Virus record (IMG/VR): IMGVR_UViG_3300050122_000130
Span: 31,489-95,488 of that record
Origin: a virus
Length of the DNA: 64,000 nt
Direction: 5' to 3' (one strand)
Below are positions 1,954 through 18,597 of this stretch, piece by piece. Under the pieces are notes generated by a model. It saw only the letters and a list, made by a program, of their open reading frames with translations. It was not told where the DNA came from and did no database searches. Made by a program: the position numbers and the translations under genes. How positions within the stretch are numbered: position 1 is the stretch's first letter; every line of letters begins with the position of its first letter.

Positions 1954-3057
1954 TTAGATGCCGATCATGCTCGCAATGGCGAACGGCTGACGCAAAACAG
2001 CGCCCATCGAGCCGCCACTCAGCTTCTGCTTCCACGATGACAGATCGGGGATCAGACGATGAGCACGCATTTTCTCGTTGAACGCGCAGAAGCCGGTCTG
2101 CTGACCGCGAACGCTGGTGCAGATCAGCTGCATGAAGTTGCCACCGACAACGCCCTGCGGATTGCTCGAGGACTGAGCCTGGTACTGGATCGCGTCGATG
2201 ATCTTCAGGTTCGGAATCTGCTTCAACAGATCCGAAACGTTGACATCGAACGAGTTCGTCGCGGTGAGCGCGAACTTGGACGCCGGAGAAAGCGCCAGCA
2301 CGAATGGCGATTCCTGGTTGATGTTGCCGCCGGACTGCAGGATGAGTTGGATGACCAGCGCCTGGATGTCCAGATAGATCTCGTTCGGCGTCGCGGTGAT
2401 GATGCCGTTGGTGATCCACTGGTTGTTGCCGTATGCCTTCGGTCCGGGCGTCAGCGCGGCCGTGAGGTTCGGATCGTTCAGCAGCCCGTAATTCTGCAGG
2501 CCCTTCACGCCGAAGAAGTATGTCTGGTTCTGGTAACGGTTCAGAGCCCAGGCGGCCGCGGCGTTCAGTTCGCTGACCCAGTTGATCTTCGCGAGACCAA
2601 CGACATCGAGCTCGCGATCGCCGTATTGCAGGATCGTCTGATAGAGGTACGGCTGGCGCGAGGGGAAGTTCAGGTTGGTGCTGACCGAGCCGTTGTTGAC
2701 GTAATCGTCGTAGCTCGAGACTTCACCGGTGTGCTCGGCAGTCGGGAACATGACCGAGTTGAGCGTCCAATCGCCCTTCTTTACTTCGCCGAGAATATCG
2801 GCGGCGCGCAGCGGGGAGAACAGGATCTCGTAGACTGTCGGGTCGATCATGGTCGACAGCCACACCGGAATGCCGGTGTTCAACGTGGTCGTGGTCGTCG
2901 GCTGCGCGTCCATCGCGAGGCCTTGATCCATGGCGAGCTCGAAGTTGTGCTTCCAGCCGTCAGGGATGTACATGCGCGCGTTTTCAAAGATCGCGCCGCT
3001 CGACTCGTAGGTTTTGCGCTCCTGAGCGAACGCGGCGACAGCTTCGTGGCGATTCAT
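1954..3057 (-). CDS. Major capsid protein, DUF2184 family
   Basis: 367 aa; LAMDAQP N-terminus, GEVKKGDW, YFFGV.GLQNYGLLNDPNL, C-terminal QPFAIASMIGI. Confidence 0.9.
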   Translation of the reverse strand: MNRHEAVAAFAQERKTYESSGAIFENARMYIPDGWKHNFELAMDQGLAMDAQPTTTTTLNTGIPVWLSTMIDPTVYEILFSPLRAADILGEVKKGDWTLNSVMFPTAEHTGEVSSYDDYVNNGSVSTNLNFPSRQPYLYQTILQYGDRELDVVGLAKINWVSELNAAAAWALNRYQNQTYFFGVKGLQNYGLLNDPNLTAALTPGPKAYGNNQWITNGIITATPNEIYLDIQALVIQLILQSGGNINQESPFVLALSPASKFALTATNSFDVNVSDLLKQIPNLKIIDAIQYQAQSSSNPQGVVGGNFMQLICTSVRGQQTGFCAFNEKMRAHRLIPDLSSWKQKLSGGSMGAVLRQPFAIASMIGI

Positions 3058-3077
3058 CGTAAGTGCCTTTCCAAAAT

Positions 3078-3106
3078 AAAAAAGGCGCTCACGAGGAGAC
3101 GCCTTG
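3078..3106 (-). terminator. Intrinsic terminator-like hairpin between decoration and capsid genes
   Basis: On -: AAGGCGTCTC-CTCGT-GAGCGCC-TTTTTT. Confidence 0.55.
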
Positions 3107-3132
3107 GCTGAGGGAGATTGTGAAAGCGAAGT

Positions 3133-4119
3133 TTAGGAGATGTTGGTGACCTTGATCAGTTCACCGACAGCACCAGCAGATGCAGCACGCCACTTCGTTT
3201 CGATCGAGGCCTGCGCCGAAATCGCGGTCGAAGAAGCCGTTTGCGACGGGCTCACCACATAAGTGCCGGCACCTCCCGCCGATCCGGTGAGCTGCTGTGT
3301 GACCACGGTACCGGTCGTCACGCCGCTGCCAGTCAGGATCTGACCGGGCCCGAAACCGGAGACCACCGTGCCACCGACCGTGAGAACACCGTAAGTGCCA
3401 GTGATCGTGGTCGATGCAGCGTTCTGCTCCGGGATATTGACGTTGTAACGGCCGAGACCGTTCAGCGCTTCACCCGCGAGCAGCGGGGTGATCTGGCTGA
3501 CGATCTGCGTTCCGGTGGCAACGCCGGTACCGCTCAGAATCGAGCCGGGGTAGAAGTTGCCGGTCAATACGCCGCCGGCGGTGAACACGTCGCCGATGAG
3601 CGTGCTAGCCGTCGCATTGGCGGTCGCCGGCGCAATCGAAGATGCCGATCCAGAACCGCCGCTCGGCGTCGAGCCGGCAGCAGCAAACGAGGCCGAGCCA
3701 TCCGCATAGTTGGCGAATGCCTTCATGCCGACAGTGGCGGCGGCGGCACCGTTGTTGACCACCCACATGTCGACTTCGTTGTAACAAGCGATCTGGAAAC
3801 CGCTCTGCAGATATTGCACCGCGGTGCCCAGATAGGCAGTGATCATGCCGACCTGGCGTCGGGAGACGATACCCGCGGGCAAGCCAGAACCGAACGTGTT
3901 CAGCGTGGCCGGAGCATTGTCGTTGTCGATCGTGGCGTACGACGTCCAGCCGAAGCGGCCGATGACGCAGCCAGTGACGACAACACCGCTGATAACGCCA
4001 GCACCGGAGATGAGTCCGCCTTCGCCGGCGAGGACGGTAGCGCGCGGATTCGCCGAAGCAAAATCACCGGCATTGCCGGGCGCCTGGATCGAGTTAACCT
4101 GGTTGGGAAAGTCGGGCAT
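3133..4119 (-). CDS. Head decoration/cement protein with Gly/Thr-rich beta-repeat insertion
   Basis: FPNQVN..QAPG.AGDFASANPR N-terminus and GELIKVT end; two G.G..GTY.V-type repeats; lies between scaffold and capsid; ATG 4119 with GGAG RBS. Confidence 0.75.
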   Translation of the reverse strand: MPDFPNQVNSIQAPGNAGDFASANPRATVLAGEGGLISGAGVISGVVVTGCVIGRFGWTSYATIDNDNAPATLNTFGSGLPAGIVSRRQVGMITAYLGTAVQYLQSGFQIACYNEVDMWVVNNGAAAATVGMKAFANYADGSASFAAAGSTPSGGSGSASSIAPATANATASTLIGDVFTAGGVLTGNFYPGSILSGTGVATGTQIVSQITPLLAGEALNGLGRYNVNIPEQNAASTTITGTYGVLTVGGTVVSGFGPGQILTGSGVTTGTVVTQQLTGSAGGAGTYVVSPSQTASSTAISAQASIETKWRAASAGAVGELIKVTNIS

Positions 4120-4161
4120 CGAATTTTTCTCCTGTTCGATGAAAGTTGCGGGGAAGGGGAT

Positions 4162-4196
4162 CAAAAAAATCCCCCTCCCCGGAATGGGAAGAGGGC
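4162..4196 (-). terminator. Intrinsic terminator-like hairpin
   Basis: On -: CCCTCTTCCC-ATTCC-GGGGAGGGGG-ATTTTTTT. Confidence 0.6.
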
Positions 4197-4206
4197 CGAA
4201 AAGGTC

Positions 4207-4286
4207 ACAGCCTGCGGTGCGTTCTTTCCGCCTACAGAGAATCGGAGGGCCAATTCTCTTTGCTAACGACGATCAGCTAAGGCTGT
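4207..4286 (-). ncRNA. Candidate structured RNA (four-way junction, tRNA-like, non-canonical)
   Basis: Closing stem ACAGCCT/AGGCTGT enclosing three hairpins; intergenic; no TTC loop or CCA. Confidence 0.35.
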
Positions 4287-4314
4287 TACGAGCGGAGGAA
4301 GCCGCCCGGTTCGT

Positions 4315-5388
4315 TTACTGGTGGCCGATACGCTCGAGGTTCTTGGCCAGACCCGGATTGCGCTTCGCGATCTCGCCGGAGGCGGAAGTCTGCTCCGCGG
4401 AATCCATCGCGTAGGTCTGCTTTTTGCCGCCGTCCTTCGGAGGCAGAGCATCGAAGGCAAACTTGAGCATTTCGACGTTTGCCTCTTTCGGCGGCTTCTT
4501 GCCGGAAGCGATCTCGATCGCCTTGCTGAAGACCTGCGCAGCACTGTCGAAGGCCATGCCGCTGAGATTTCCGACGCGACCACGGACGTGATCCTTGGCA
4601 ACGGCGACTGCATCCATGCGGTCGCGCTCCTTCTTGATGCCGGCGTTGATGCCGGCCTGGATCTTCTCGTCCATCGCCTTGTCCTTCTCCTCGTCGTCTT
4701 CATCGTTGGCGGTTTCTTTGGGCGTCTCCGGATCGTGCTCTTCGTCTTCCTCGTTGACGTCCTTGTCCTTGGCGCCAGCGGTGAGCTTGCCGTCCTTGCT
4801 CTTCTTGGCATCTTTAGCCTTTTTGTCAGCCGCCTTCTTGGCTTCCATGCGCTTTTTCATGCGCTCGGCCTTCTCCTCGTCGGTCTCGGCCTCTTCGTCG
4901 TCGGCCATGTCCTCATCGTCCATGTCCTCGTCTTTGGCCTTGTCTTCCTTTTTGTCCTTCATATCGTCGGGGAAATCGTCGCACGCGACCTCGATCATAT
5001 CGAGCACGGCATCGAGCCCCTTCGGATCCAGCGCGCCGTCTTGCGCATACTGCGGATCGAGGTGACCCTCGACCGAAGCGTTGATCCATGCGCCAAGAAC
5101 CGGACGCTTGGCCTTGAAATTCTTCGCATTGATATTGCGAAGACCCTTGTTCAGGTCGATCTTCGCATCCATCGCAAGCTGCGGACGCAGGAATGTGGTC
5201 AGCATGCCATACGCGACAGTGCCGAGCGCCGACAGTTTAGCTTTCTTGATCATGGTCTTCTCCTTGATGTCAGGGTTAACGGAGTCGTATGCGCGCTCAG
5301 TCAGAAGTGACTCGTCGAGACCGAGCGCCACGATGGCCTCACGAGGAGTCTTGAATTTCTTGCGAAGTGCGTCACGCAATTTGCTCAT
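4315..5388 (-). CDS. Head scaffolding protein
   Basis: Highly charged D/E/K low-complexity, many A-[MFYQ]-D motifs; ATGA overlap with the protease stop; lies between protease and decoration genes. Confidence 0.75.
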
Positions 5389-7925
5389 AGGTGCAGCCCC
5401 AGGATTGCCGACTCGATCAGAGCCCACGGATCGATCGCGCCGTCGCCGACCACAACATCGCTACCCGCGCGGCCCTCAGAAACGAGCGCAACGTGATTTC
5501 CGATGATGTCGCGCATAACACCGTCGTAGGGCTTGCCCTCGTAAATGCCTGGCGTCATGTCAGCGCGGTAGCGATAGGCGCTGGACAATTCCTTTTTGCG
5601 TTTACTCTCGACCGCGTTGATGCCGCGCTCAGCCCAGATGACGAGGCTGTTTTTCAGGTGCGGATGTTCGAACGAAGCGTCGGTACCGGTCGAACCGACC
5701 ACGAGCTCAGGACGATGGTTGGCGGCGTTGACGCCGACATGCTGATCGAGCAACGGCAGATTGTTGAAGGTCGACTCCGCCTTCTTCAGCTCCGCAGGAT
5801 CTCGCAACAATTGATAGATACGGCCGGGATCGAGCCCCAGCTCCTTGTACTTCGGAATTTCCTTTCCGAGATACGGGTTCACAATCGCCTTCGAGATGTT
5901 CGAAATCTCGACGTGCATGCGGCCGTCGGCGTCGATCCTGCGCACCGTCACCGGCGCGCGATCGAACGCCAAGCCGTGGCGCTCGATCCCAGGAATGGTT
6001 GCCCGGTCGAACGCCAGCTCCTCGCCGTCGAGCTCGACGTCATGAATCTTGTCGGCGCCGTCGCCGTCCCAGCCGAACGGCACGATCTTGTCGTCTTCGT
6101 CGCGCGCCTCGATCGTGCGTGACGCGCCGATCGATCCCAGCCGCTTCATGTGGCTCAGCAGGCCCTTGAAATTGAAGTCGCCGCTGTAGCGGACGGTCAG
6201 CGTGTGCTCGGCATTGTACGGTTTCCGATCCCGCGCGAGGCCCGCGAACATGCCGTCCATCGCCTTCACACCGACTCGAGTCGCGAGATTCTTCTTCCTC
6301 GCAATGAGCCGATCGGCCAATTCCTTGTCATCGCCGACGGCTTCGCGGATCTTCGCGTCCGGGATCTTTGAGACGCGCTCGACCGACGCCGAGAGCTCAG
6401 CTTCGGTCATCGGTGCGAACAGCTTCGCGGCGTCCGGGTTCATGCCCTTGTCGCGCAGTGTGTCGAATTCCGTAACCTTGTCGCCGAACGCCGCCCCCTT
6501 GGCCCCCCCCTGAGCACGGAAGCGCAGCGAACCGCCTACATCCAGCGTGGTCGTCTTACCTTCGAGGATCCCTTGATTGTCTCCACCCGTACCAGCCGCG
6601 TCCCAATTAGAAAGCCAGGCATGGATAGCGAAGTCTTTAGCCGCTTCTTTGCGCTCAGCCGGCGTGAACTCGCTGATGTTTTTCTTTTCGAGCTTCCGCC
6701 ATTCCGTCGCAACATGCTGACCGCCTTCCACATCGCGGTAGGGCAGCGTCGCGGCGCCGGCGAGCTGGTACAGGCGCGCGGCGGCGCGCTCATTGTCCGC
6801 GTGGGCCTTAGTCGGGGCTTTCTTGATGTAAAATTTGGAACCGCTTTTATCTTCGTAGGTTCCGCCCTCGTTCGATCCCAGCTTGCCGCCCTTTTTCGAC
6901 AACTCGCCCATCTTCAAGGGTGAACTTGCGCCCTTCTCCGATGACTTTGCCTTTGAGGAGTTCCCGGAATGGGCTGATGCACTCGCAGAGGAACCGCTCC
7001 CGCTCCCGAATTTCCCGTCGTCTTTGCGCGGATGATCGCCCTCGTTCCATTCGTCGCTCGCTAAGGTTCCAAGGCTGCGCATGAACAGCGCCATATCGAA
7101 GGCCTTCGTGATGCCCAGGCCCTTGCTCACGGTCTTGAAGATGGGAGCAACCCCCGACCCGCCGCATTTATCGCACCCAGCGCCCGCGCAGGCCCCGCAA
7201 ACGCTATCCTGCGCAAGACGACGCTTCGCCAGCCGCTTCAGGCGGGCGTCAATCTTCCCGCCGACCGGGGTTCCGGTGTTGACGATCGTCGCCAGCGCCG
7301 GCTGATTATCGTCAGCGTGTTCCGGTTCCGCTTCTTCCTCGCGCGTCCACTTCGCGAAGTTCTCGCGCAGCTCCGCCCAATCCTCCGGCGCCATGTCCTG
7401 CGCCATGCCGAGATTTTCGCCAAGCACCCGGGTGACGTTCGGATGCATCGGCTCCGGCAGTTTGTCGAGCGGAAACCAGCCGAATTCCGAATGCTCCTCG
7501 TTCAGCTTCGGTTTGAACTTGTCCTCGACCGATTCAGTGAACGTGTGGAACATCATCCCGTTCGGAGTCTGCACCAGGTCGAGCAGCTTCTTCCGGCCGG
7601 TAGCGGCCGGCGCCGTCGATCCGAGCTCCTCGCGAGCTTCGCGATCGGCGCATTGCTCCGGAGATTCCCCTGCATCAGCTTTGCCGCCCGGTAGCGCCCA
7701 GTGCCCGACGTAGTTGTCCTTGCCTTCCTCGCCCGCGCGCTTGATCAGTAGCACATCGCCATCTGGTGCCACGAACACGATGCCGGCCGCGATCGGCAGC
7801 GCTGCGTCTTCTCCGGCTTCCTTGTATGCGATAGCAGCAGCCTGCTTTACAGGTCTTCCCAGCTTAGTGAGTTCAGCTATATTAGCCGATATCACTTTCT
7901 GGGATGATCCCTGCTTCAGTGGCAT
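5385..7925 (-). CDS. Multidomain prohead protease (C-terminal DUF2213) fused to Nudix hydrolase, Zn-finger and HipA/PI3K-like kinase domains
   Basis: Perfect Nudix box [22 protein letters not shown]; CGAC..CDKC; kinase-like YIKK..NE..WLSNWD..GDN..LDVGGS; DUF2213 [29 protein letters not shown]; ATG 7925 (MPLKQG). Confidence 0.85.
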
Positions 7926-8643
7926 TTTTGTTTTTCCATCTATTTGGCGGTCGCGTGCCAAGGCGCTTATGCGCTGCGCTCATCTTGGCTTTAGTTTCAT
8001 CGGAATGCTTGCGGCCAATGCTTAGCTGTCTCAGCATTTCCATATGTTCGGGAGACGAACGAAGACCGCTAGTGTTTCTTGTCGCACTCATTTTTTGGCG
8101 AGTTTCCAACGAAACCTTGCGACCTGTTTGAGTCTGCGATCTTTTCAGATTGCTCTCTGGAGTAATAATTTGATTAGCTCTTGCAACTCGGATTTTATCG
8201 CGAGTTTTTTCAGAAAGAGGTATCCCGGCTCGACTACTCAATACCAAACGGCCTGCATCCGTCATGATGTGCGGTTTCGACATTTTTTTGAGCGTTTCCG
8301 CTGAATGTCGTCTGCCTGCGCGTTTAGCTGCGACCTCTGGTGAAGACATCGGGCTGGTCTCTCCGCCCAATCCGACATTGTAGCCTTGTGATCGGTCAGT
8401 CGTCCGAAAGAACCTAATGAACTCTATTTCTAGGCTCAGTATTTCGTGCTTCTCACCAAGCGCCAGAACTTGAGGAACCAAGTTGTTAGTCCCGTAGCGC
8501 ATGATAGCCTGATGAACGGGTAGATTAGATCCTCGTCTCGCATCACTGCAATGCCTCATCCAACGATGTCTTATCGTTTTTGAGGTAATGCCAAAATATC
8601 GCTTTCCATTCGGAAATTCGATCACATAGAGTAGGTAAGCCAT
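7882..8643 (-). CDS. GIY-YIG homing endonuclease with NUMOD3 repeats
   Basis: [18 protein letters not shown]...H, GYN..GG, repeated G.K/RHS.ETK.KMS. Confidence 0.9.
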
Positions 8644-8892
8644 CTGGGCGCTCCAACGCTCATTTCGGTTAGAGGCCGTTCAGTGTGTCGAGCACTGTAC
8701 GGCCTCGTCTTCTTATACTAGCTCCTACTGACTATCGCAACGCTCTCTGCACTGCCAAAACTTGAAGTGCCTATGCCTTGAAGCAGTCCTCACAGCGGTC
8801 CGAACTGATGACCCTGGGACTGACGCTGACATACTTCTCGACGGATGGCTTCTGGCCGCAGTCCGTGCAGACAGGTTCAGCCGGTTTCTTTT

Positions 8893-9174
8893 TCACTTCG
8901 GTTTCTTTCGCCCGCGCGTATCGAGCGCGGTTCGATTATTGTTGCGGCCCTTGTTCACTGCCGGCGGACGCAGACCGAGCCGGCGCTGATAGGCGCGGAC
9001 GTGCGTGGCGCTGAAACCGCAGACACCGATCTCGGCCGCGAGTATTTCCGGATCCAGACCCTGCGGCGCGTCCCTCAAAATCTTTTCGATCTCTGGGGAG
9101 TCGTACGGGTCGCGAAACTTCATTGTCGAACTGGTGCTGATCCACCAATCATCTGAATTCCCGAAGTTCTCCAT
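8893..9174 (-). CDS. Hypothetical protein, possible HTH
   Basis: ORF coupled to the GNAT gene; LAAEIGV...HVRAYQRRLGL. Confidence 0.5.
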   Translation of the reverse strand: MENFGNSDDWWISTSSTMKFRDPYDSPEIEKILRDAPQGLDPEILAAEIGVCGFSATHVRAYQRRLGLRPPAVNKGRNNNRTALDTRGRKKPK

Positions 9175-9605
9175 CAGCCAAGACGATAGGTCAGCGTCAC
9201 AGCTTCTTCGGTACGCCCCTGCTTCTTGGCGATCGCACGCATGGCGCTGTTGCGCACATGCGTTCCTGACTGAATCGTTACTGCTTTGAGTTCAGCGGCC
9301 TTCTCGACCATTGCCGCCCACAAAGCGTTGTAGAGCCCGCGGCCGCGGAATTCCGGGAGCGTATAGCTCTGGAAGATCCACACGCGCCCGGTATCCTTGT
9401 CAAAATTCCAGGTCATCACCGCGGCGGGTATCATTTCGCGGCCGTTCTGCGCGTAGGCGATAAAGGCGTTAAGCGACGTAAAGACGTTCAGCGTCCCGTC
9501 ACCGTACCCCTTCTCGACACATTCCGCCCAGCCGCGCACCGCGAGCTCGAGCGCTGGCGTATTGTTCAGGCCCTCGACGTACACGATCTTGATCTCGTCG
9601 CTCAC
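9174..9605 (-). CDS. GNAT family N-acetyltransferase
   Basis: Motif A YTLPEFRGRGLYNAL and motif B N.AM..I.KK.G. Confidence 0.85.
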   Translation of the reverse strand: MSDEIKIVYVEGLNNTPALELAVRGWAECVEKGYGDGTLNVFTSLNAFIAYAQNGREMIPAAVMTWNFDKDTGRVWIFQSYTLPEFRGRGLYNALWAAMVEKAAELKAVTIQSGTHVRNSAMRAIAKKQGRTEEAVTLTYRLG

Positions 9606-9699
9606 TCGTCAAACTCCGATCATCTGAACGAGCGGCCACCGAATCCAGATCATCCGCCGCGTACGCCAAAAAACCAGACGTGAAGATCGTACTGCATTT

Positions 9700-9864
9700 T
9701 CAAATTCGGCCCACGAGCAGCAAGATGATCAAGATCACGACGATCAGACCGAGACCGCCGCCGACTCGATAACCACCGCCATAGAACGGACCGCCGCCCA
9801 TGCCGCTGAAGCCGCCGAGCAGCGCGATAACGAGAATAATCAGAATGATGGTGCCGATCGACAT
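9700..9864 (-). CDS. DUF3309-family small membrane protein
   Basis: MSIGTIILIILVIALLGG...YGGGY..GGGLGLIVVILIILLLVGRI; GGAGG RBS. Confidence 0.8.
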   Translation of the reverse strand: MSIGTIILIILVIALLGGFSGMGGGPFYGGGYRVGGGLGLIVVILIILLLVGRI

Positions 9865-9878
9865 GGTGGCCTCCTTCG

Positions 9879-10352
9879 TTATTGCCGCGCACCGATCGCG
9901 ATATACTCGCCGGGCCCGGCATTCTTGTTGTCGCGATCGAGCGTCACGCGAAGATCGGTCGATCCGTTCAGCATCAGGACCAGGTCCGACGACGAACTGA
10001 TGATGCCAGGGGGTACCATCGGCGAATTCTGCACGGTGGTCTTCCAGTGTGCACTCTCGAAGGCGTTCTCCAGGTTCAGCGCCAGATCGCCGCATTTGCT
10101 GTCCTCGAGACAGAAAATGGTCACTTCGCCCGGCTTGTCCTTCAATTTCGTGGTCAGGTCGTCAATTTCAGCCTGACTGAGCTCCGGCCAGATGGTTCTC
10201 GCCATCCGTTGGGCCTTTGCCGGGCTTACGGTGCCCGCTGGTGCGGTGACGACGCGGGTGACTACTGGCGCGCGGGTCACGCTCAAATAACCCACAGAGG
10301 CCGCCACAGCGACTAACGAGGCCACGATCGAGGGGATGACATGCTCTCTCAT
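9879..10352 (-). CDS. Hypothetical membrane-anchored/secreted protein
   Basis: N-terminal hydrophobic segment; ORF in the operon. Confidence 0.6.
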   Translation of the reverse strand: MREHVIPSIVASLVAVAASVGYLSVTRAPVVTRVVTAPAGTVSPAKAQRMARTIWPELSQAEIDDLTTKLKDKPGEVTIFCLEDSKCGDLALNLENAFESAHWKTTVQNSPMVPPGIISSSSDLVLMLNGSTDLRVTLDRDNKNAGPGEYIAIGARQ

Positions 10353-10572
10353 GGTATCCCCGCTGGTCGATCGATTGCAGGAGGCGGTTCAGCCGCCGGA
10401 GCCGGCGCGTAGACCGGCGCCGGGCCCTTGTCGCGCTTCATCACGACCGAGACTTTCGGCTTGTGCGGGATCGGCAGATCAGCGCCATAAGCGACCGAGA
10501 AAATCAGCGCACCCACCGACACCACTAAAGCGAACACAGATAGTGCCAGCGATATTCGATACAGCATCGTGC

Positions 10573-10926
10573 TCAATCCTGCGTTTCTTTGGCGAAGTCG
10601 CCGTGTTTGTCGACCGGCGCCGGCAGCAGCGGCATCTGTACGATATCGGAACGCTTGTGCCAACTGTCCGGGCAGAACTGAATTTTGCCGTCGGTGATGA
10701 TGTAATGGCAAAGGATATTTTGCTTTTCACCACGGCCGAGATTGGTTTGCGGGTCGATCCCACCAGTCCAGCGAACGAAGGTCTGCGCAAAGCTTGGCGA
10801 GAACGTTGGCTTCTGCACGTCGCCATTGAAGGTCCAACTATCGGGCAGGATGTGAACTTCCTCGCATGCCGGACACCAGTGAGCGTGACCGGTAATTGTT
10901 TTGCGGAGTATCGGGCTGACCTGCAT
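10573..10926 (-). CDS. DUF6527-like Cys/His protein (paralog 1)
   Basis: HWCPAC...H, WTFNGD..KPTFSPS, CHYIITDGKIQFC.D..H. Confidence 0.75.
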   Translation of the reverse strand: MQVSPILRKTITGHAHWCPACEEVHILPDSWTFNGDVQKPTFSPSFAQTFVRWTGGIDPQTNLGRGEKQNILCHYIITDGKIQFCPDSWHKRSDIVQMPLLPAPVDKHGDFAKETQD

Positions 10927-11026
10927 CAGGAATATCTCTGAGCGACGATCATCACAATCACCATGAAGATCACCATCATCGCCACGATTCCAGCGGCCTG
11001 CCATATCTCTTTACGTCCAGAACGCC

Positions 11027-11419
11027 TCACAGCCGCGCGCTCGTCATATACTTGTCGTCAGGGACATCTGGCATCTCAACCGTCTGTCCGCGCAGCGAAT
11101 GCGTGCAGTCACCGAGAAACTCTATCATCCCATTGCGAATGAAGTAGTGGCAGACCGTGCTCGCGACACCGCGCTGATATTCCTTCATGTCCGGTGTGTT
11201 CACCCGCATATTGATGCTCGGCGAGAACGTCGGCTTGTACCGGTTGTTGTTGAACGTCCACTTCGCACCAGATGAGTTTGGCTCGTCAACGTTAATCTCG
11301 TGGCCATAGCCACAGCCTGGACACCAGTGACCGTAGCCACCCTGCGGCCAATACTTGCGATCGAGCGCTACCAGCTTGCTCACGGCGTCAGCTTTCCATC
11401 GCGCAAAAATCCATGCCAC
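11027..11419 (-). CDS. DUF6527-like Cys/His protein (paralog 2)
   Basis: HWCPGC...H, WTFN....KPTFSPS, CHYFIRNGMIEFLGDCTH. Confidence 0.75.
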   Translation of the reverse strand: MAWIFARWKADAVSKLVALDRKYWPQGGYGHWCPGCGYGHEINVDEPNSSGAKWTFNNNRYKPTFSPSINMRVNTPDMKEYQRGVASTVCHYFIRNGMIEFLGDCTHSLRGQTVEMPDVPDDKYMTSARL

Positions 11420-11853
11420 TCATTGTTCGAACCCATGAAGAACGAGCCGGCGCCCGCGGCGCACGTCTTGCCGTTCTTGTCGACGGTGATTTTCTCGCCA
11501 ACAGTGCCGTGCCGTACCCAGCACCGGTGCTCGTGGTCTTCCTTCATCGTGCAGTTCGACGCGCGGCCCTCGATCGCCCACGAATGACCGTCGGCGTGCT
11601 TGCAGTAGATCGACAGGCCGTCATAGCCCACGCGCGGATATGAATTAGGCCCAGCGCCGTTTGTGCGGCGTGCGGACCAAAGCGCGCCCGTCGGCATCTC
11701 GTTCCAGCGAACCTCGCGACCGGTAGTCGTCTCACGCATGATCGGCGAGCTCACGCCATCCTTGTCGAAGCCGCTCATCTTCGGCTTGCCCTCAGCATCG
11801 AGGACGTGTTCCCACCAGGTCGTCTCGAAGACAGCGTGCGGATCGATCGTCAT
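11380..11853 (-). CDS. Divergent DUF6527-related Cys/His protein
   Basis: RASNCT...HRCW.RHG...ITV....AGSF...WHGFLRDG.L C-terminus. Confidence 0.5.
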   Translation of the reverse strand: MTIDPHAVFETTWWEHVLDAEGKPKMSGFDKDGVSSPIMRETTTGREVRWNEMPTGALWSARRTNGAGPNSYPRVGYDGLSIYCKHADGHSWAIEGRASNCTMKEDHEHRCWVRHGTVGEKITVDKNGKTCAAGAGSFFMGSNNEWHGFLRDGKLTP

Positions 11854-11881
11854 GACAAGCAATCTCCGCAATCCGACAAGC

Positions 11882-11911
11882 AAAAGGCCCCGACTGTAAA
11901 GTCGAGGCCTT
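11882..11911 (-). terminator. Intrinsic terminator
   Basis: On -: GGCCTCGACT-TTAC-AGTCGGGGCC-TTTT. Confidence 0.65.
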
Positions 11912-12026
11912 GGCCGTTATTTATTGCAAGTCCGTGTCGCCACGAGCCCGGGCGACCGCGCGAAGCTTACCTCAACATCTCCGACAAATGCTAAGGGGCG
12001 CCGGCTCGGCCGGCGGCAGTATTGGG

Positions 12027-12275
12027 CTATCGCTGGAGAAAGTAGCCGTGGCCACCTCCGAAACCGCCAAGCAGGCACGAGATGATCTCAGCTAGCAGAT
12101 AGATAATTCGGATCGATATCGACAGCATGATGATTATCAGCAAAACCTGCGTGATCCACGGAATTCCGGACATGCTCTCGAGCCAAGGTCCGATCAGCCG
12201 GCAAATCTTCAATGCCGCGATGATACACATAAACCAAACGATTAACTCGACAACGAACCAGATTGAAAAGCACAT
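12027..12275 (-). CDS. Small two-TM membrane protein
   Basis: Two hydrophobic segments; GGAGG RBS. Confidence 0.55.
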   Translation of the reverse strand: MCFSIWFVVELIVWFMCIIAALKICRLIGPWLESMSGIPWITQVLLIIIMLSISIRIIYLLAEIISCLLGGFGGGHGYFLQR

Positions 12276-12544
12276 CGCTCAGCCTCCAAGGGTTAAGCCG
12301 ACGCAACGCGCGAGAGTTTAGTTCGTTCCTCTCACACCCAACCCAGAACCCAAAAAATGAAAGCCCAAAGCGGAAGCGCGATCGCTACCGCCAGCACCCA
12401 AGGCCAGGATGCGGAATAGATTATTTTCAAGACAGGTGATCCATTTTGACCATGCTTCCACTTCAAAGCCTGACTTAAACTTTCCCCATGAGACAGCATC
12501 CTCGCCCAATTTGGGTCGACAGCGGTTTGTTTCCGCCGATTGAT

Positions 12545-13378
12545 CTACGAGAAGCCCGGCACGATCGGGATGCTCACACATCGGCAGTTAATCAACTGGC
12601 CTGGATGGATGAACTCTTTGACCGCAGGGTCATACCATCCTTTGGTGACGTCGTAGGTTTTGCCGTTGTTCTTGACATGCGTCGGGCGCGGGACCTTCCC
12701 CCCGCCTGAATGTCGCCATGTCGCGGTAGTGATGCCGTTCTCAATGAACCGCACGCGCGACATGTTCGCCGTCGCTTTATTGTTCTGATCTTTCGATATC
12801 AGCGCCGCACGCCGCTTCGTCACGCCGTACCGCTTCTCAAGTTGTTTCGAAAGTGTTCCAAGGTCCCGGCCAGCCGATACCGACCGCATCACGAGTCCTT
12901 CGACTTCCTGCAGGTGCTGGCTGGCGATCGATTTGATCAACCCAACATTCTCCGCGGTCGTCGCCTCGACCACGTCCTTCATGGCTTGCGACATCTGAAA
13001 CCGAACAGAGAAGCCGCCTTTTCGCAAGATCGAAGCGAGCTGCTGGTCCGTCCGCTTGTGCGCGGCCGTCGCGAAGTATTTCGCCAGTTGCGGTGCCGCC
13101 CAATCGAATCTCTTCAGCCAGCGCTTCTTCAGCAACTCGATCGCTTTCTTGAGCGCGTTTGCCGGCAGGATATCGTCCATCGCCATCGCTGGCGGGTTCT
13201 CGCGGTACGCAGCCTTGATCCAGTAATCGACGGATGCGTTCATTTCCTTGATGAGCCGGTCCAGCTTCTTGCGGTAGGCGACGCTGAGGCCGATGTTCGG
13301 ATGCACCGGCCGCAGCTTCTTCGGCTTCGAGGCCTTGGATGCTTGGCCAACTGAAGTCGCGCGAAATATTCCGTGCAT
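12545..13378 (-). CDS. Minor head protein, MuF / SPP1 gp7 family (short form, no toxin extension)
   Basis: LRPVHPN.G...Y, RAALISKDQNNKA, W.HS....PRPTH, PGQLINCRC. Confidence 0.9.
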   Translation of the reverse strand: MHGIFRATSVGQASKASKPKKLRPVHPNIGLSVAYRKKLDRLIKEMNASVDYWIKAAYRENPPAMAMDDILPANALKKAIELLKKRWLKRFDWAAPQLAKYFATAAHKRTDQQLASILRKGGFSVRFQMSQAMKDVVEATTAENVGLIKSIASQHLQEVEGLVMRSVSAGRDLGTLSKQLEKRYGVTKRRAALISKDQNNKATANMSRVRFIENGITTATWRHSGGGKVPRPTHVKNNGKTYDVTKGWYDPAVKEFIHPGQLINCRCVSIPIVPGFS

Positions 13379-13389
13379 CGAACTTTCCA

Positions 13390-13658
13390 ACGTAGGCCCG
13401 AACGAACGACATATCGTCGGGCACGATCGATTGCATTTTTAGCAGCTGGTCGACCATGGATTTGACGTCGGAGTAAATCTCCTCCGGCGTGGCCATGGCC
13501 CAGAACTTACCGCTGCCGTAGAGCGTCACAGCGGTCTTGCTGGGACCGATGGCCATATCCATCCCGTAGACGACATCAACCGGCGCCTTCGGCAGGGCCG
13601 GCGCGATCGCCGCGGCCGCAACGCCCGTCAGAAACGCTCTGCGGTTAAGTTCGGGCAT
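13390..13658 (-). CDS. Twin-arginine-leader protein with TerL-like and capsid-like short segments (frame stays open to 12837, overlapping MuF)
   Basis: LNRRAFLTGVAAAAIAPA leader; 3' end uncertain. Confidence 0.5.
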
Positions 13659-13947
13659 CGAGCGCGCGCCTCCCGATCGGCGGGTCACCCATCAATTGCG
13701 ACGTGACATTCTCGTGCTCGAGATAACCGTCTCTGCTAGGATCGTATTGCGCGGCAGCGCGGTAATCCGGCTTGTCGACAGCGTACTCTTTCAGCCGATT
13801 GTCGACTGAACCTGCCATGCGCTTGCGGTAACCGCGCATATATTCCTTCATGTATCGATTGTACGATTCTCGATCGGCCCATTTCGACGGCGTGGCACCT
13901 TTCGGTCTACCGCGTGGACGTCCAGTTGGATTGCTCCAATAGCTCAT
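13645..13947 (-). CDS. Hypothetical AT-hook DNA-binding protein
   Basis: GRPRGRPKG motif, basic helix. Confidence 0.55.
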   Translation of the reverse strand: MSYWSNPTGRPRGRPKGATPSKWADRESYNRYMKEYMRGYRKRMAGSVDNRLKEYAVDKPDYRAAAQYDPSRDGYLEHENVTSQLMGDPPIGRRALDART

Positions 13948-14213
13948 CAGTGCACGCGCCCGCGGCGCTGATGCTCCCACCAGATGAAGCGGTGATAGCC
14001 CCACCAAAACGGATTGGCGAATGAGTGGCGGACCACGAGCGCACGATTGTCGAGCGGTATGGTGTGTTTGTCATCAACGCAGCCCATACGGCTGTTGCAC
14101 GATGGATAGATGCAGTCGTCCCACGGACAGGCGGTCATCATGCAGCCCCATAAGGCCGCACCAGCGGCCGAGCGACGCGCGTGTTGCGCTGCTCAGCCCG
14201 ATCTAGCGCAGAA

Positions 14214-14489
14214 TCACTCTTTGCGAAAGGAGGTTCCCGACGTATCGCCGGAGCCCTCCCCGTTTTTTGAGTTCGAACGCTCCAGATCCTTCACTTCCTC
14301 GAGCATCGCGTCGAAGTCGGCCTCGCCGCTATCGAGCGAACCTTCGTGCGCCTCGAAGGCCTGGTTCATCCGAGAGTCGAAGCCCGGCATACGGTCGATC
14401 AGCGCCTGCGCGCGCTCGTCCATCTTCCGCTTGCGCTCGGCCACCATCTGCGCTGCGAGACGCGCCTTGCTGATCGGTGCGTCCGCCAT
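14214..14489 (-). CDS. Hypothetical coiled-coil protein
   Basis: ATG 14489 with GAGG RBS, helical composition. Confidence 0.55.
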   Translation of the reverse strand: MADAPISKARLAAQMVAERKRKMDERAQALIDRMPGFDSRMNQAFEAHEGSLDSGEADFDAMLEEVKDLERSNSKNGEGSGDTSGTSFRKE

Positions 14490-14490
14490 A

Positions 14491-14925
14491 TCAGCCTCGT
14501 CCCGCTTCGCCGCTCGATCGATTGTCCGACTCAGATGTAGGTTCAGCAACTGCGACAGCAGCAGCGTTCGCTGCATCGGGCGCGTCCCTCTTGAAGCCGG
14601 CCTCTGCGAAGATCCTCATCATGGCCTCGGCGCCGAGCGGGTCGCCGATCTTGACCGCTCCGCGAATCAGCGCCGATGACGAATACATGCCGGCGACCAC
14701 GCCCATGATCTGCTCCGCGCAATAGTTGCGGTGCTTCTGCTTGTCCTGGACGACGTCGATGCCGGGAAACAAATCGATCACGGTATTGAGCTGGTCGCGC
14801 GCGCGCGCCGCGAGGAAGCGCCCATACCGCAGGCTCACGTCCATCAGCCACGTCTGGTCATCACCGGTGGTGATTTCCTTTTTGATCTCGTCCAGGCGCC
14901 GCTGGTAGGCTTCATGGTTGAACAT
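14491..14925 (-). CDS. Hypothetical protein
   Basis: 144-aa ORF, TGATG-coupled to the upstream ORF. Confidence 0.6.
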   Translation of the reverse strand: MFNHEAYQRRLDEIKKEITTGDDQTWLMDVSLRYGRFLAARARDQLNTVIDLFPGIDVVQDKQKHRNYCAEQIMGVVAGMYSSSALIRGAVKIGDPLGAEAMMRIFAEAGFKRDAPDAANAAAVAVAEPTSESDNRSSGEAGRG

Positions 14926-15089
14926 CAGTCGTCGTCTTCCATCTCGACTTCGTTGCCATTGTCGTCGACCACCTTCACCTTGAACGGTGGGTCGTCTTTC
15001 TGCACTACAACGACTTCGCCGTCCGGTCCAGCACCGATCGGACCCTGCTCGAGCGTCGAGGTATCAATCTTCTTCGGCTCTTTGGACAT
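14925..15089 (-). CDS. 54-aa acidic protein immediately downstream of the portal-ART gene (not in ORF track)
   Basis: ATG 15089, 1 nt after the portal stop; MSKEPKKIDTSTLEQGPIGAGPDGEVVVVQKDDPPFKVKVVDDNGNEVEMEDDD; TGATG overlap with next gene. Confidence 0.6.
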   Translation of the reverse strand: MSKEPKKIDTSTLEQGPIGAGPDGEVVVVQKDDPPFKVKVVDDNGNEVEMEDDD

Positions 15090-15090
15090 T

Positions 15091-18000
15091 TCAGACTTCC
15101 TCGAGCTCGATGTGAGTGCCCTTGACGGACTTCACATGAAAGCGGCTGCCCGACTTGAACAGCACCTCAGCCTCACCTGGATGAGACGATAGCTTCTCGA
15201 TGTCGCGTCCGTTCTTGCCGTGCACCGTGTAGCTATAATCGCCGGACCACGTTCCCTGGTTCTTGCTAGTTGAGGTGAAGCCACGTTCTTCGATGATGTG
15301 CCCGGGAATATAGGCCTTGAACTGCTCCGGCGTCAGCGACGCTTTGCGGTACGTGGTTTGCGTATACTTCGGCAGCTTCTCAAGCCCGGAATTCAGCGAC
15401 TTCATGAACTTGTATTGCGCGACAGTCATCGTGCCACGGCGCAACTCGGAATTCACCTTGCCGTAATGCGAACCACTGTACGCGATGATCGGAACAGCGT
15501 CCGCGCCACTGATGTGCTTGGACAAGCCTGCCGATTTGACCTTCTTTTCCGCTTGCGCGACGTAGGCCTTGGCAGCATCACCGCCACCAAACAGCGCTTC
15601 CATCGCTTCGTAGTGCGTCTTCAGCTCAGGATCGGCCGCAAACTTCTCGTCGAGCTCCTTCTGCGCTTTAGCCTCTTTTTCGGCCTTCTCGGCAGCGGCT
15701 TTCTTCGCGTTCTCTTCGACCTTCTTCGCCGCGGCCTCAGCCGCAGCTGATTCAGTCTGCTTGACCTTGGCGAGCGTGGCTTTGTAGTCGGCGACCTTCT
15801 GGTTCAGCTGCGCGTCGCTCAGGCCTTCCTTGCCGGCGTACTTCGCATTGAACTCCTTGATCGCAGTGACAGCTTCCGGCTCGGAGCTCGAGATCGGTAG
15901 CGTCGTTCCTTTCTTGGCTTTCTTCAGCTCCTCCGGCGTGGCCTGCGGAACAGTGGGCTTGTCCTGCAACAGGCCCATCTTCTTCATCTGATCCTTCATC
16001 GCAGGCTTCATGTTTTCCGAGAGCTGCTCGGCAAAAGCCGGATTGTACTTGAGCAGGTTTGCAGCGGTATCGGTGTCGTTCTTCTGCAGCGCCTCAGCCA
16101 CCGCGCCCAGGAATTTCGGATAGGTGCCGCCTTCACCCGACATGAACTCAGCCAGCGCGTTCAGCTTCGCTGGCTCAGGCGTCTTTTCTGTAACCGCTGG
16201 ACCTTCCCACGATTTAGCAATTGCAGCTTTTTTCTCCGGAGTCAGAGCAGCAGCTTCCTTCGCTGCCTTCTTCTCGGCATCCGTCATCGGATGGCCCTTA
16301 TACATCAGCTTGCCGTTTTCGGTGTACTTCTCCAGCTTCATGCCGAGCGACTTGGCTTGCGCCGGCATCGAAACTGAGGGCCAGCCCATGGTCTCCATGA
16401 TCTCTTTTGCGGTTGTGCCCTTCTCGAGGAGATGGCCGATGATCTCCTTTTTCGAGTTGAACTTCGCACCAACGAAGCCCTTGGCTACATCTGCAAGAGC
16501 CTTAGCCGCGCTTGACTTGCCGCTCGCCGGCGTACCGCCGCCCCCTGTGGTCGAGAACTTGCCGTCCTGATCGCGCTTGACCTTGCTCTCGTCGAACTGG
16601 CCATCGTCGAACGCCCAGACATCGGCCGCGATCTCGGAGGGCTCGATCGCTTCGTCAGCAGCGCCGTCGACTTCCTTGTTGTCGCGCGATCCACTACCGC
16701 CTTCGCCGCCACCGCCGGCTCCGCCGCCCTGAACCATGCCCTGGTCGGCTGGCGGCTCCGGTAGATCGTCTGGCTCGAGTCCATTGTACGGCGAGTCATC
16801 GTCAGCGATGACGATCTCACGAACTTCTTCTTGGCCGATAACGCCCATGTCGACGTAAATCTGATGGGTCTCGGCCTCGGTCTTCTTGACCTCAGATTCG
16901 CCCTTCTCGTCCAGGCTCCAGAGCGGTTCGAACTCGAAGCCGATCGAGGGATCGACTTCACCGAACAGATTGAGCTGAATAAAATCAATAATGCGCTTCA
17001 GCTTGTCGCGGAACAGGTTCTCCTGCATCGCGTGCACAAGATCGTAGAACACCCGAAGCTCCCCCTCGCTCGAGGCGTTCAGGCCCGAAGGCGTGATGCC
17101 GAGCAGCACGATGAGCGGGATACCCGACACCGATGACATCTGCTCCTGGCTTTGCGCCTGCAGGTGGTCGAGCGTCCCGAGGGGGGTTGAGATGTTGAAG
17201 AACTCTTCGGTCTCCTTGTCCAGCACCATGGCGCCGGCATTGCTGCGCGCCTTGTTGAACAGATCGATGCGGTCAAGCACCTCCTCGCCGCCGCCCTGCA
17301 GCAGCGATTGAGCGTTCGTGTAGACGCCCGAAACAGAGAAGCTTTCGATCAGGTTGGTCACGGCCTGTCGGGTGCGCAGCCAGTTGTCGACATATGGCTT
17401 GGCCATCTGCGACATCGACAGGCCGCCGAATGCATACGACGGCTTGAGAATGTCCGGCACCGGCCGGCCGACGAACGTCAACAGGCGCGAGACGTGCACC
17501 TGCTTCGCCATCGCGAACCAGACTTGCGGATTGTACCAATCATCCGCCAGCGGGTCATTCGCGTTGTAATTGACGGGGTAGCACCAGATCGGCTCGATAT
17601 GTTTGATGTTCTTCAGCGAGCCCTTTTTGAATTGAGCCTTGCTGGTCTCATCGCTTCCATTGCCTAGGTCGCTCTTGAGCTCGTCCGGATCGTCACTGTC
17701 GCCGGTGTCAATGTAGAGGTGGCTCCGCCCCATCCAGCCATCGAACTCTGCGACGGTCTTGAACTTGCCCCGCAGGTCGAGGCGCTTCATGTCCTCCTCG
17801 ATCGCCTTCAGCTTCTTCTGCAAAGCCTCGTTGCGTTTGCGTTGTGCGATCTCCTCCGGAGTGGGCTCGTCGTCTTCCTCGTCGTCATCGGCCACGGCGC
17901 CGCCGGCAGGGGCACCATCCGCATCATCGTCCTCTTCGTCCTCGAGCGGCGCATCGGGCGCTTTGTCGGCGCCAAGGCCTTCATCCGCCTCGTCGGCGTC

Positions 18001-18597
18001 CTCGTCGCTGGCATCGCTCTCAGGTTCGGCTTCACCGGCAATCGTGAGCCGGATCCACTTCCTGGTCATCTCGGTCGCAAGGCGTTCCGAGATCCGGCGA
18101 TACTCCGGCCGCTGGGTCAGCTGCGACAGATACGCGTACCCAAGAAAGCCGATGCCCTCCGAGAAGGCCTCGCCGATCGGGTTCGCGAAATTCCACGCGT
18201 TTGTGTACGACTCGTTGGCCCAGGTCGCGATCGCGCCGTCCAGCGCCATTTCCGGCTCGGCGCCCTGGGGTAGAACGCCCGGAGGTGGCTTGAATGCCTG
18301 GAACGGGTTGTAGAGCGCCGCTCCTTGGCTCTGCGAGGCCCCTGAACGCGTTTTACGTGCGGCCCGCGCCATAACTTCGGAACTTATCTTCATCGGCGCA
18401 CGGGGCTCGACAACGGCCGCATGGTGCTTCTCAAGATCGACAGCTGTGCGCGGTGGCACTTTGTCCGCCGCGGGCGCCGGCTTGGCTGTGGGAGCCGGCG
18501 TCGCCGCGACAGCAGGGGTGTGTCGCATCACACCGAGAACGGCCTCCTTGATGGTTTCTGAAGTCGGCCGCTGCCGCTTATACCGGGTCACCGTCAC
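15091..18597 (-). CDS. Portal protein (DUF1073 family) with long C-terminal extension ending in an ADP-ribosyltransferase domain
   Basis: Portal: FLGYAYLSQLTQRPEY, HVSRLL, YVDNWLRTR, GIPL..LLGITPSGLNASSEGE...FYD; ART: AYSG..Y..VN..LR, TYRK, GFTSTS, EAEVLF..G.RF.V. Confidence 0.9.
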   Translation of the reverse strand: MTVTRYKRQRPTSETIKEAVLGVMRHTPAVAATPAPTAKPAPAADKVPPRTAVDLEKHHAAVVEPRAPMKISSEVMARAARKTRSGASQSQGAALYNPFQAFKPPPGVLPQGAEPEMALDGAIATWANESYTNAWNFANPIGEAFSEGIGFLGYAYLSQLTQRPEYRRISERLATEMTRKWIRLTIAGEAEPESDASDEDADEADEGLGADKAPDAPLEDEEDDDADGAPAGGAVADDDEEDDEPTPEEIAQRKRNEALQKKLKAIEEDMKRLDLRGKFKTVAEFDGWMGRSHLYIDTGDSDDPDELKSDLGNGSDETSKAQFKKGSLKNIKHIEPIWCYPVNYNANDPLADDWYNPQVWFAMAKQVHVSRLLTFVGRPVPDILKPSYAFGGLSMSQMAKPYVDNWLRTRQAVTNLIESFSVSGVYTNAQSLLQGGGEEVLDRIDLFNKARSNAGAMVLDKETEEFFNISTPLGTLDHLQAQSQEQMSSVSGIPLIVLLGITPSGLNASSEGELRVFYDLVHAMQENLFRDKLKRIIDFIQLNLFGEVDPSIGFEFEPLWSLDEKGESEVKKTEAETHQIYVDMGVIGQEEVREIVIADDDSPYNGLEPDDLPEPPADQGMVQGGGAGGGGEGGSGSRDNKEVDGAADEAIEPSEIAADVWAFDDGQFDESKVKRDQDGKFSTTGGGGTPASGKSSAAKALADVAKGFVGAKFNSKKEIIGHLLEKGTTAKEIMETMGWPSVSMPAQAKSLGMKLEKYTENGKLMYKGHPMTDAEKKAAKEAAALTPEKKAAIAKSWEGPAVTEKTPEPAKLNALAEFMSGEGGTYPKFLGAVAEALQKNDTDTAANLLKYNPAFAEQLSENMKPAMKDQMKKMGLLQDKPTVPQATPEELKKAKKGTTLPISSSEPEAVTAIKEFNAKYAGKEGLSDAQLNQKVADYKATLAKVKQTESAAAEAAAKKVEENAKKAAAEKAEKEAKAQKELDEKFAADPELKTHYEAMEALFGGGDAAKAYVAQAEKKVKSAGLSKHISGADAVPIIAYSGSHYGKVNSELRRGTMTVAQYKFMKSLNSGLEKLPKYTQTTYRKASLTPEQFKAYIPGHIIEERGFTSTSKNQGTWSGDYSYTVHGKNGRDIEKLSSHPGEAEVLFKSGSRFHVKSVKGTHIELEEV

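Follow-up and report, generated by a model that had tools for sequence, protein, structure and literature searches.

Two genes in the head module of a phage carry the same short leader peptide on unrelated cargo. The genes, P0001 and P0002, lie in a 64,000-nucleotide stretch of viral DNA (positions 31,489 to 95,488 of the IMG/VR record IMGVR_UViG_3300050122_000130), hereafter called the window, and encode a polyprotein containing a prohead protease and a portal fused to cargo. Both leader sites are copies of a widespread module of about 20–30 residues, made of a structured core with the pattern [FW]xExxHPRxxDGKF and a Gly/Ser tether, and each enzyme module that would travel in a tailed-phage capsid is bounded by this leader on the N-terminal side. 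Two forms of carriage were found: the tagged module follows a head-assembly protein (portal, MuF or prohead protease) in a fusion, or it has a stand-alone gene of its own in the head module. We propose, with moderate confidence, that the peptide is a cargo leader serving loading, retention or exit through a putative binding partner.

The original prediction, made from the DNA letters alone, had described a shared post-cleavage leader on a protease and a portal. We read both peptides as claimed in the translations of P0001 and P0002, with its coordinates correct to within a few bases (Table 1). In a six-frame regular-expression scan of the window, R..DGKF occurred inside real open reading frames (ORFs) only at these two sites. 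A motif profile built from 131 independent viral instances plus the two window copies also matched only the two leaders, at 45.0 and 37.1 bits, with all other ORFs in the six frames scoring below 3 bits; no Pfam domain is common to P0001 and P0002. The DNA of the two leader stretches was identical at 44 of 90 positions, which rules out a DNA-level repeat and indicates that the likeness is held at the protein level. A chance resemblance might be suspected from the shortness of the match (14 residues only) and from the missing His-Pro in the portal copy, but the distance of both scores from those of all other ORFs, the recurrence of the same variants at the same junctions in dozens of homologues and the 2,913 library clusters described below leave it a negligible probability. 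These results confirmed the observation that one and the same element is present on two unrelated cargoes.

From the N- to the C-terminus, P0001 consists of a Nudix domain, a Cys-rich Zn-ribbon, the leader, a kinase-like module, a small domain and the DUF2213 prohead protease. The junction before its leader reads LASD-E-W, and further Ala-x-Asp (A-x-D) sites follow the Nudix domain and the kinase-like module and occur twice before the protease, where two LAFD sites precede the DUF2213 domain. The scan against Pfam and PHROG assigned no domain to residues ~340–660. The kinase-like character of the cargo module is a lead only: its atlas neighbours were viral proteins of ~220 aa together with MuF, Nudix and ADP-ribosyltransferase (ART) fusions, and one neighbour cluster was partly annotated as PI3_PI4_kinase. 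Residues 301–581 of P0001, which comprise the A-x-D site, the leader, the tether and the kinase-like module, were 64% identical to residues 646–939 of a 1511-aa portal, P0009, and the homology began exactly at the A-x-D site and leader. Thus, relatives have this cargo on the portal, whereas the phage studied here has it on the protease gene, and the leader moves with its cargo.

The P0002 copy is a variant in which VK replaces HP, and its junction reads WAFD-DGQFDESKVKRDQDGKF-STTGGGG. The [VIH]KRDxDGKF variant that it represents was found at the equivalent junction of many homologous portals, and its position corresponds to the second junction of portal relatives of 1500 aa. Each leader had been described as following an A-x-D site and preceding a Gly/Ser linker and an enzyme domain. 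The site and the tether were present in both proteins; the enzyme does not follow directly in the portal, where ~290 non-enzymatic, Lys/Ala-rich residues separate the leader from the ART domain.

Two further features of the portal were noted. An A-x-D in the form MALD (P0002 aa 115–118; window 18243–18254) lies ~35 residues before the Pfam portal domain, and the first 93 portal residues are reported in the Pa193 paper to be missing from the map and from mass spectrometry; the portal N-terminus of P0002 may also be trimmed. In addition, for a portal homologue of 1422 aa with 85% identity, P0041, the precomputed Pfam list includes a Hint_2 domain (PF13403), and this homologue is ~250 aa longer ahead of the leader, which suggests an intein in the portal of this close relative.

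We then analyzed the variation and spread of the leader. Its consensus can be written as [FW]xExx[H][PK]Rxx[DN]G[KQ]F, with a Gly/Ser tether behind it, and the core was defined by an aromatic residue at −5, Glu at −3, [H][PK]R, a spacer of 2–8 residues and G[KQE]F, a definition that both window copies fit. Among extended portals, we observed the forms HPRxxDGKF, HPRxxNG[QE]F, [VIH]KRDxDGKF and a long-loop form, HPRGQPGNAGQF. The DNA pattern for HPRxxDGKF, in which the flanks were unspecified, matched at least 142 sites in at least 116 loci of IMG/VR. Among the matches listed (132 distinct viral sites), position −5 was F or W in 127 and position −3 was Glu in 112, a Gly/Ser run followed, and one viral ORF held six copies. 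The same pattern in prokaryotic genomes gave, among the matches listed, ~60 flank-bearing matches and ~35 chance matches, the former in Actinomycetota, Pseudomonadota, Bacillota, Bacteroidota, Planctomycetota, Verrucomicrobiota, Acidobacteriota, Chloroflexota, Elusimicrobiota, Nitrospirota, Spirochaetota, lineages of the candidate phyla radiation (CPR) and a methanogen-related archaeon.

A profile search of 1.84 billion cluster representatives identified 2,913 clusters at E<=1e-3 and 245 at E<=1e-10; the former number is a minimum, since proteins with one copy score near the threshold. One protein contained up to 17 copies. Using a 40-aa query, tblastn found the leader in a few cultured phages (Orimi01/Orisa, PhiXhv-5/7, a Helicobacter prophage, Gordonia and Streptomyces phages, and HHTV-1) and in one plasmid, although so short a query is insensitive and these counts say little about the true frequency. 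In the cultured archaeal tailed halovirus HHTV-1, a 'WNPALHPRGPDGKF' variant is located at about residue 130 of the gene 13 product (L240 5611–8913), an unannotated protein of 1100 aa encoded in the head module between the terminase and a Mu-F-like gene.

An AlphaFold model based on a 30-residue alignment had a mean predicted local distance difference test (pLDDT) score of 77, rising to ~88 over the core, and showed a short turn, with the Arg bridged to the final Phe. The model points to a core that would form a compact hairpin on a floppy tether. No model of Pfam, NCBIfam or PHROGs covered P0001 aa 300–330 or P0002 aa 660–700, and none of these collections matched the N-termini of eight other carriers. 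A profile search of the PDB found no chain with the motif, the only hit being a spurious partial match to Cyclin-Y. We also considered self-cleavage at Asp-Gly and DNA binding by the core and found no evidence for either; common variants of the motif have Asn or Gly in place of this Asp.

The position of the leader relative to known domains was polarized. We split motif-bearing viral ORFs at their motifs and scanned the resulting 210 segments against Pfam. The first-upstream pieces (n=78) comprised 26 with Phage_portal_3, 4 with the lambda portal, 3 with the Mu portal and 4 with MuF, the rest being effectors such as Nudix and 2H. The 132 downstream pieces carried ART, topoisomerase IB, Nudix, Zeta toxin, PBECR1, GNAT, DUF2213, LPD1/3/13, InPase, RadC and helicases, and Pfam detected a portal domain in none of them. 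An independent sample of 65 multi-copy proteins from the exhaustive profile search described above showed the same domain picture, plus Mu-like and XkdF proteases; relaxase, coupling-protein and ArdC domains were absent from these proteins and from the 210 segments. In a set of 120 extended portals gathered by portal homology alone, 87 of the 92 portals of at least 800 aa had the motif behind the portal domain, often again at later junctions, and as a control the same regular expression gave no match in 48,000 residues of portal domains.

The second form of carriage was represented by ~63 stand-alone ORFs of up to 450 aa with one motif near the start. An ATG preceded [FW] by 1–5 codons in 28 of these 63, three being the most frequent distance (M-x-x-F/W). 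Within 5 kb of 21 stand-alone loci, we found portals, MuF, minor capsid 2, DUF2213/XkdF/S49 proteases, terminases and capsid proteins. The tag therefore stands at a true N-terminus without any carrier, yet in head modules. The association with head-module cargo in other phages, on which the original prediction had staked its reading, was thus borne out when the profile was built and the downstream domains were tabulated. At one locus (L045), the products of two paralogous stand-alone genes begin with 14 residues, the last three being A-M-D or T-M-D, and the leader follows immediately; some stand-alone cargo may have a short removable propeptide.

The leader was also paired with a candidate protease site. 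In the portal_3 set, 92 of 103 motifs (89%) had an A-x-D ending 1–4 residues ahead of the aromatic position, against a background of 0.8% per residue. The LAMD pair in the window capsid immediately precedes the segment that the alignment places at the beginning of the ordered capsid of phage E217, in which the aligned AMD ends at residue 64 and the first ordered residue comes 2 aa later; in the E217 paper, the first 65 capsid residues are described as invisible and possibly cleaved. Capsid homologues encoded in motif-bearing loci have [LFY]A[MN]D or GFD at the equivalent place. In loci L031/L116 and L228, Asn is the last residue of the capsid site (VIN, VSN) and likewise of the site ahead of the leader (AQN-EW, LSN-ADW), although we count this covariation as one event because it probably reflects one lineage. 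With A-x-D recurring near the leaders, in the capsid and in the scaffold-like protein, the proposal that it is a DUF2213 protease site appears credible at the sequence level, and we infer that this protease would cut after A-x-D before the leader. In the literature, we found no experimental cleavage data or cleavage specificity for DUF2213. These observations give good support to the reading of a post-cleavage leader on the cargo, and thereby to a part of the original prediction, whose further proposal was a putative signal for capsid retention or ejection that might load foreign cargo.

We propose the following sequence of events. The portal and the protease polyprotein would carry their cargo into the procapsid, where the DUF2213 protease would cut after hydrophobic-A-x-D, 1–4 residues before the leader. 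This cut would free the kinase-like and the ART-bearing modules, each with the leader as its new N-terminus, and the exposed leader may then serve as a docking or hand-off peptide for a conserved partner, by which the cargo would be kept, positioned or exported with the DNA. The leader occurs once in every module, at an N-terminus that is real or predicted, and this speaks for a role that it plays on each module after its release.

Several observations weigh against this proposal. In the mixed viral set, A-x-D was near the motif in only 26% of cases, so the cleavage part would be lineage-specific; the figure fits other proteases having other specificities. The motif is the same in phages with portals of four families and proteases of at least five, and no equally conserved phage partner is obvious. 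Cargo fused to a head protein would enter the procapsid without a tag, which makes a pure loading role redundant there. Moreover, a 42-kb plasmid of Amycolatopsis sp. FU40 (NZ_CP091379.1) encodes a 189-aa protein (L239 8992–9561) that starts with MLAWNEADHPRGADGRF and continues with a membrane helix; the plasmid has KilB, ParA, TraM-recognition (coupling-protein-like) and relaxase-domain genes and no visible head genes, and a purely capsid-bound role is therefore not safe. Lastly, tandem arrays of up to four adjacent tagged genes (L139, L199, L170, L150, L203 and L219; Isoptericola, Oerskovia, Cellulosimicrobium) encode proteins that each start M-S-T-F-T-E-x-x-HPR-x-GDGKF-ATKAV and have unrelated bodies, and Pfam recognized no phage or conjugation domains within 8 kb of these actinobacterial arrays. 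A Pfam scan of an archaeal locus gave no context.

Other roles would account for parts of these data. The leader might act after cell entry without any tie to the capsid, directing the enzyme to a conserved cellular target or to incoming DNA, or serving as a translocation handle, and this would suit both the presence of its own copy on every effector module, including the internal modules of polyproteins, and the copy on a plasmid with conjugation-type genes. However, with hosts in more than 15 bacterial phyla, CPR bacteria and archaea, a cellular target would need to be nearly universal, and the roughly charge-neutral, acidic-flanked core is unlike a DNA binder. The multi-copy proteins and viral segments surveyed above contained head proteins rather than conjugation domains, and we consider an action after entry rather unlikely. 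A pure processing signal, in which the maturation protease or its scaffold-like part docks on the leader as an exosite and the leader has no function once freed, would explain the frequent A-x-D beside the motif in the portal_3 set and the covariation of the residue before the cut with the capsid propeptide site; protease domains also carry the leader or lie next to it, and an assemblin-like fold is common to most prohead proteases (Iyer 2017, PMC5512222). A specificity determinant should nevertheless covary with its enzyme, whereas the core is constant while the cut site and the protease family (DUF2213, S78, S78_2, Mu gpI, S49) change, which argues that the core is not what determines protease specificity. 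The stand-alone proteins that begin 1–5 residues before [FW] leave nothing to remove, and the plasmid copy has no protease in view, so that processing as the sole function seems improbable to us.

The leader could also be a passive module boundary, a linker inherited with shuffled cassettes at a recombination junction and having no activity of its own. The cargo cassette, which has the leader at its edge, has indeed switched between portal and protease genes, and polymorphic toxin systems have conserved junction motifs. Recombination at a junction would act on DNA rather than on seven near-invariant residues, though, and the two window copies have diverged in DNA, while the residues are kept across phyla of very different GC content. 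Adding the fixed position at true N-termini and the confident local fold, we judge a passive boundary very unlikely. The cargo leader proposed above is accordingly the reading that we prefer. A stronger version of it, in which the leader is a universal portable signal that is read by a conserved head or ejection feature in viruses of both bacteria and archaea and would alone suffice to load or export a passenger, is possible but doubtful.

The coordinates of both leaders, their carriers and the surrounding genes are given in Table 1. The window carries a phage head module on the minus strand (1954–20693) with terminase, portal, protease, scaffold, minor head and major head genes, and the closest solved relatives of its portal, capsid and protease-scaffold are those of the Pseudomonas phages E217 and Pa193. 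No MuF gene in the window was confirmed by Pfam. At window 5385–5388, the sequence ATGA combines the likely start codon of the scaffold-like gene with the P0001 stop codon; protease and scaffold are one protein in Pa193 gp24 and in phrog_2229 and are two translationally coupled genes here. Small genes lie between P0002 and P0001. They include a GIY-YIG-type homing endonuclease gene (window 7882–8643, minus strand), located upstream of the annotated P0001 start and overlapping it, and a gene for a small GNAT acetyltransferase (window 9174–9605, minus strand) without the leader, which indicates that not every head-module enzyme is tagged.

Table 1. Leader copies, carrier proteins and head-module genes in the window
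Feature	Window position	Strand	Basis or remark
P0001, 858-aa polyprotein	5385..7961	minus	translation, Pfam, PHROG
Nudix hydrolase domain, P0001 aa 56-175	7437..7796	minus	Pfam PF00293, E 1.4e-21
A301-S-D303, predicted protease cut site, one residue before leader Trp	7053..7061	minus	prediction
P0001 leader core, W305-F318 (aa 305-318)	7008..7049	minus	45.0 bits, motif profile
Gly/Ser/Ala-rich tether, P0001 aa 319-349	6915..7007	minus	translation
Cargo module of ~225 aa, kinase-like (lead only)	6240..6914	minus	64% identity to portal P0009 residues 646-939
DUF2213 prohead protease domain, P0001 aa 674-840	5442..5942	minus	PF09979, E 5e-47; phrog_2229 head maturation protease
P0002, 1168-aa portal-cargo fusion	15091..18597	minus	translation, Pfam, PHROG
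Phage_portal_3 domain, P0002 aa 155-579	16861..18135	minus	PF06381, E 5e-75; matches E217 and Pa193 portals in PDB
A662-F-D664, predicted cut site, three residues before leader Phe	16606..16614	minus	prediction
P0002 leader core FDESKVKRDQDGKF, F668-F681 (aa 668-681)	16555..16596	minus	37.1 bits, motif profile
Gly/Ser/Thr tether behind P0002 leader	16498..16554	minus	translation
C-terminal R-S-E ART domain, P0002 aa 972-1159	15121..15684	minus	PF03496, PF01129; PDB ART matches
Large terminase	18594-20693	minus	
Scaffold-like protein, 370 aa	4315..5427	minus	16 A-x-D sites
Minor head protein	3133-4164	minus	
Major capsid protein	1954..3057	minus	LAMD twice (aa 41-44, 47-50)

Enzymes that phages inject serve to disarm host defences and to seize control of the cell, and, to our knowledge, there is no general way beyond a few model phages to tell which proteins travel in the capsid. 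A tag that heads modules in at least 2,900 clusters would give a sequence handle for candidate injected effectors, many of unknown fold, and would supply clear rules on cleavage and boundaries by which head polyproteins can be read. It would also be a concrete peptide to try as a loading or delivery signal in laboratory phages. If the universal version of the proposal were true, scanning for the leader would list the injected-effector repertoire of any phage. The tag stays constant while portals, proteases and hosts change, and a partner that reads it would be a conserved one.

The fusion architectures themselves are known. Iyer, Burroughs, Anand, de Souza and Aravind (2017, PMC5512222) described head proteins fused to ART, Nudix, 2H, PBECR, Zeta, GNAT and LPD domains, with an assemblin-like peptidase at the C-terminus and genes located in the head module, and predicted that these proteins are packaged and injected. 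P0001 and P0002 fit their polyvalent proteins: each is a single polypeptide that combines a head domain with at least one effector domain, both genes lie among packaging and head genes, and the peptidase is C-terminal in P0001, where DUF2213 occupies aa 674–840 of 858. The text of that paper mentions no linker, glycine-rich spacer or HPR/GKF motif, and a leader that starts each module and is paired with a protease site is absent from its description. Literature searches on HPR/GKF/DGKF motifs, capsid-targeting motifs and DUF2213 returned nothing on the leader peptide, which is thus undescribed in the papers and curated models searched.

Comparable short signals exist in other systems. In polymorphic toxins, MuF toxins included, as with the leader, a short conserved sequence parts a constant carrier from swapped C-terminal enzymes; the MuF-toxin paper (Jamet et al. 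2017, PMC5576092) mentions no junction motif or cleavage. Unlike such junctions, the leader also repeats between successive modules and heads stand-alone proteins. Encapsulin cargo-loading peptides, which are usually C-terminal, resemble it as short terminal peptides on a flexible tether that serve diverse enzymes in the interior of an HK97-fold shell, but their consensus is different, and binding to the shell has been demonstrated for encapsulins only. The nearest functional analogue is probably the capsid-targeting sequence (CTS) of phage T4, a lineage-restricted, short N-terminal peptide by which unrelated proteins (the internal proteins and Alt) are packaged in the capsid and then injected. 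Both are short peptides on unrelated cargo with a protease site nearby. The CTS, however, lies upstream of the prohead-protease cut and is discarded, whereas the leader lies downstream of the predicted cut and would stay on the cargo; the two sequences are unrelated, and the leader spans viruses of bacteria and archaea.

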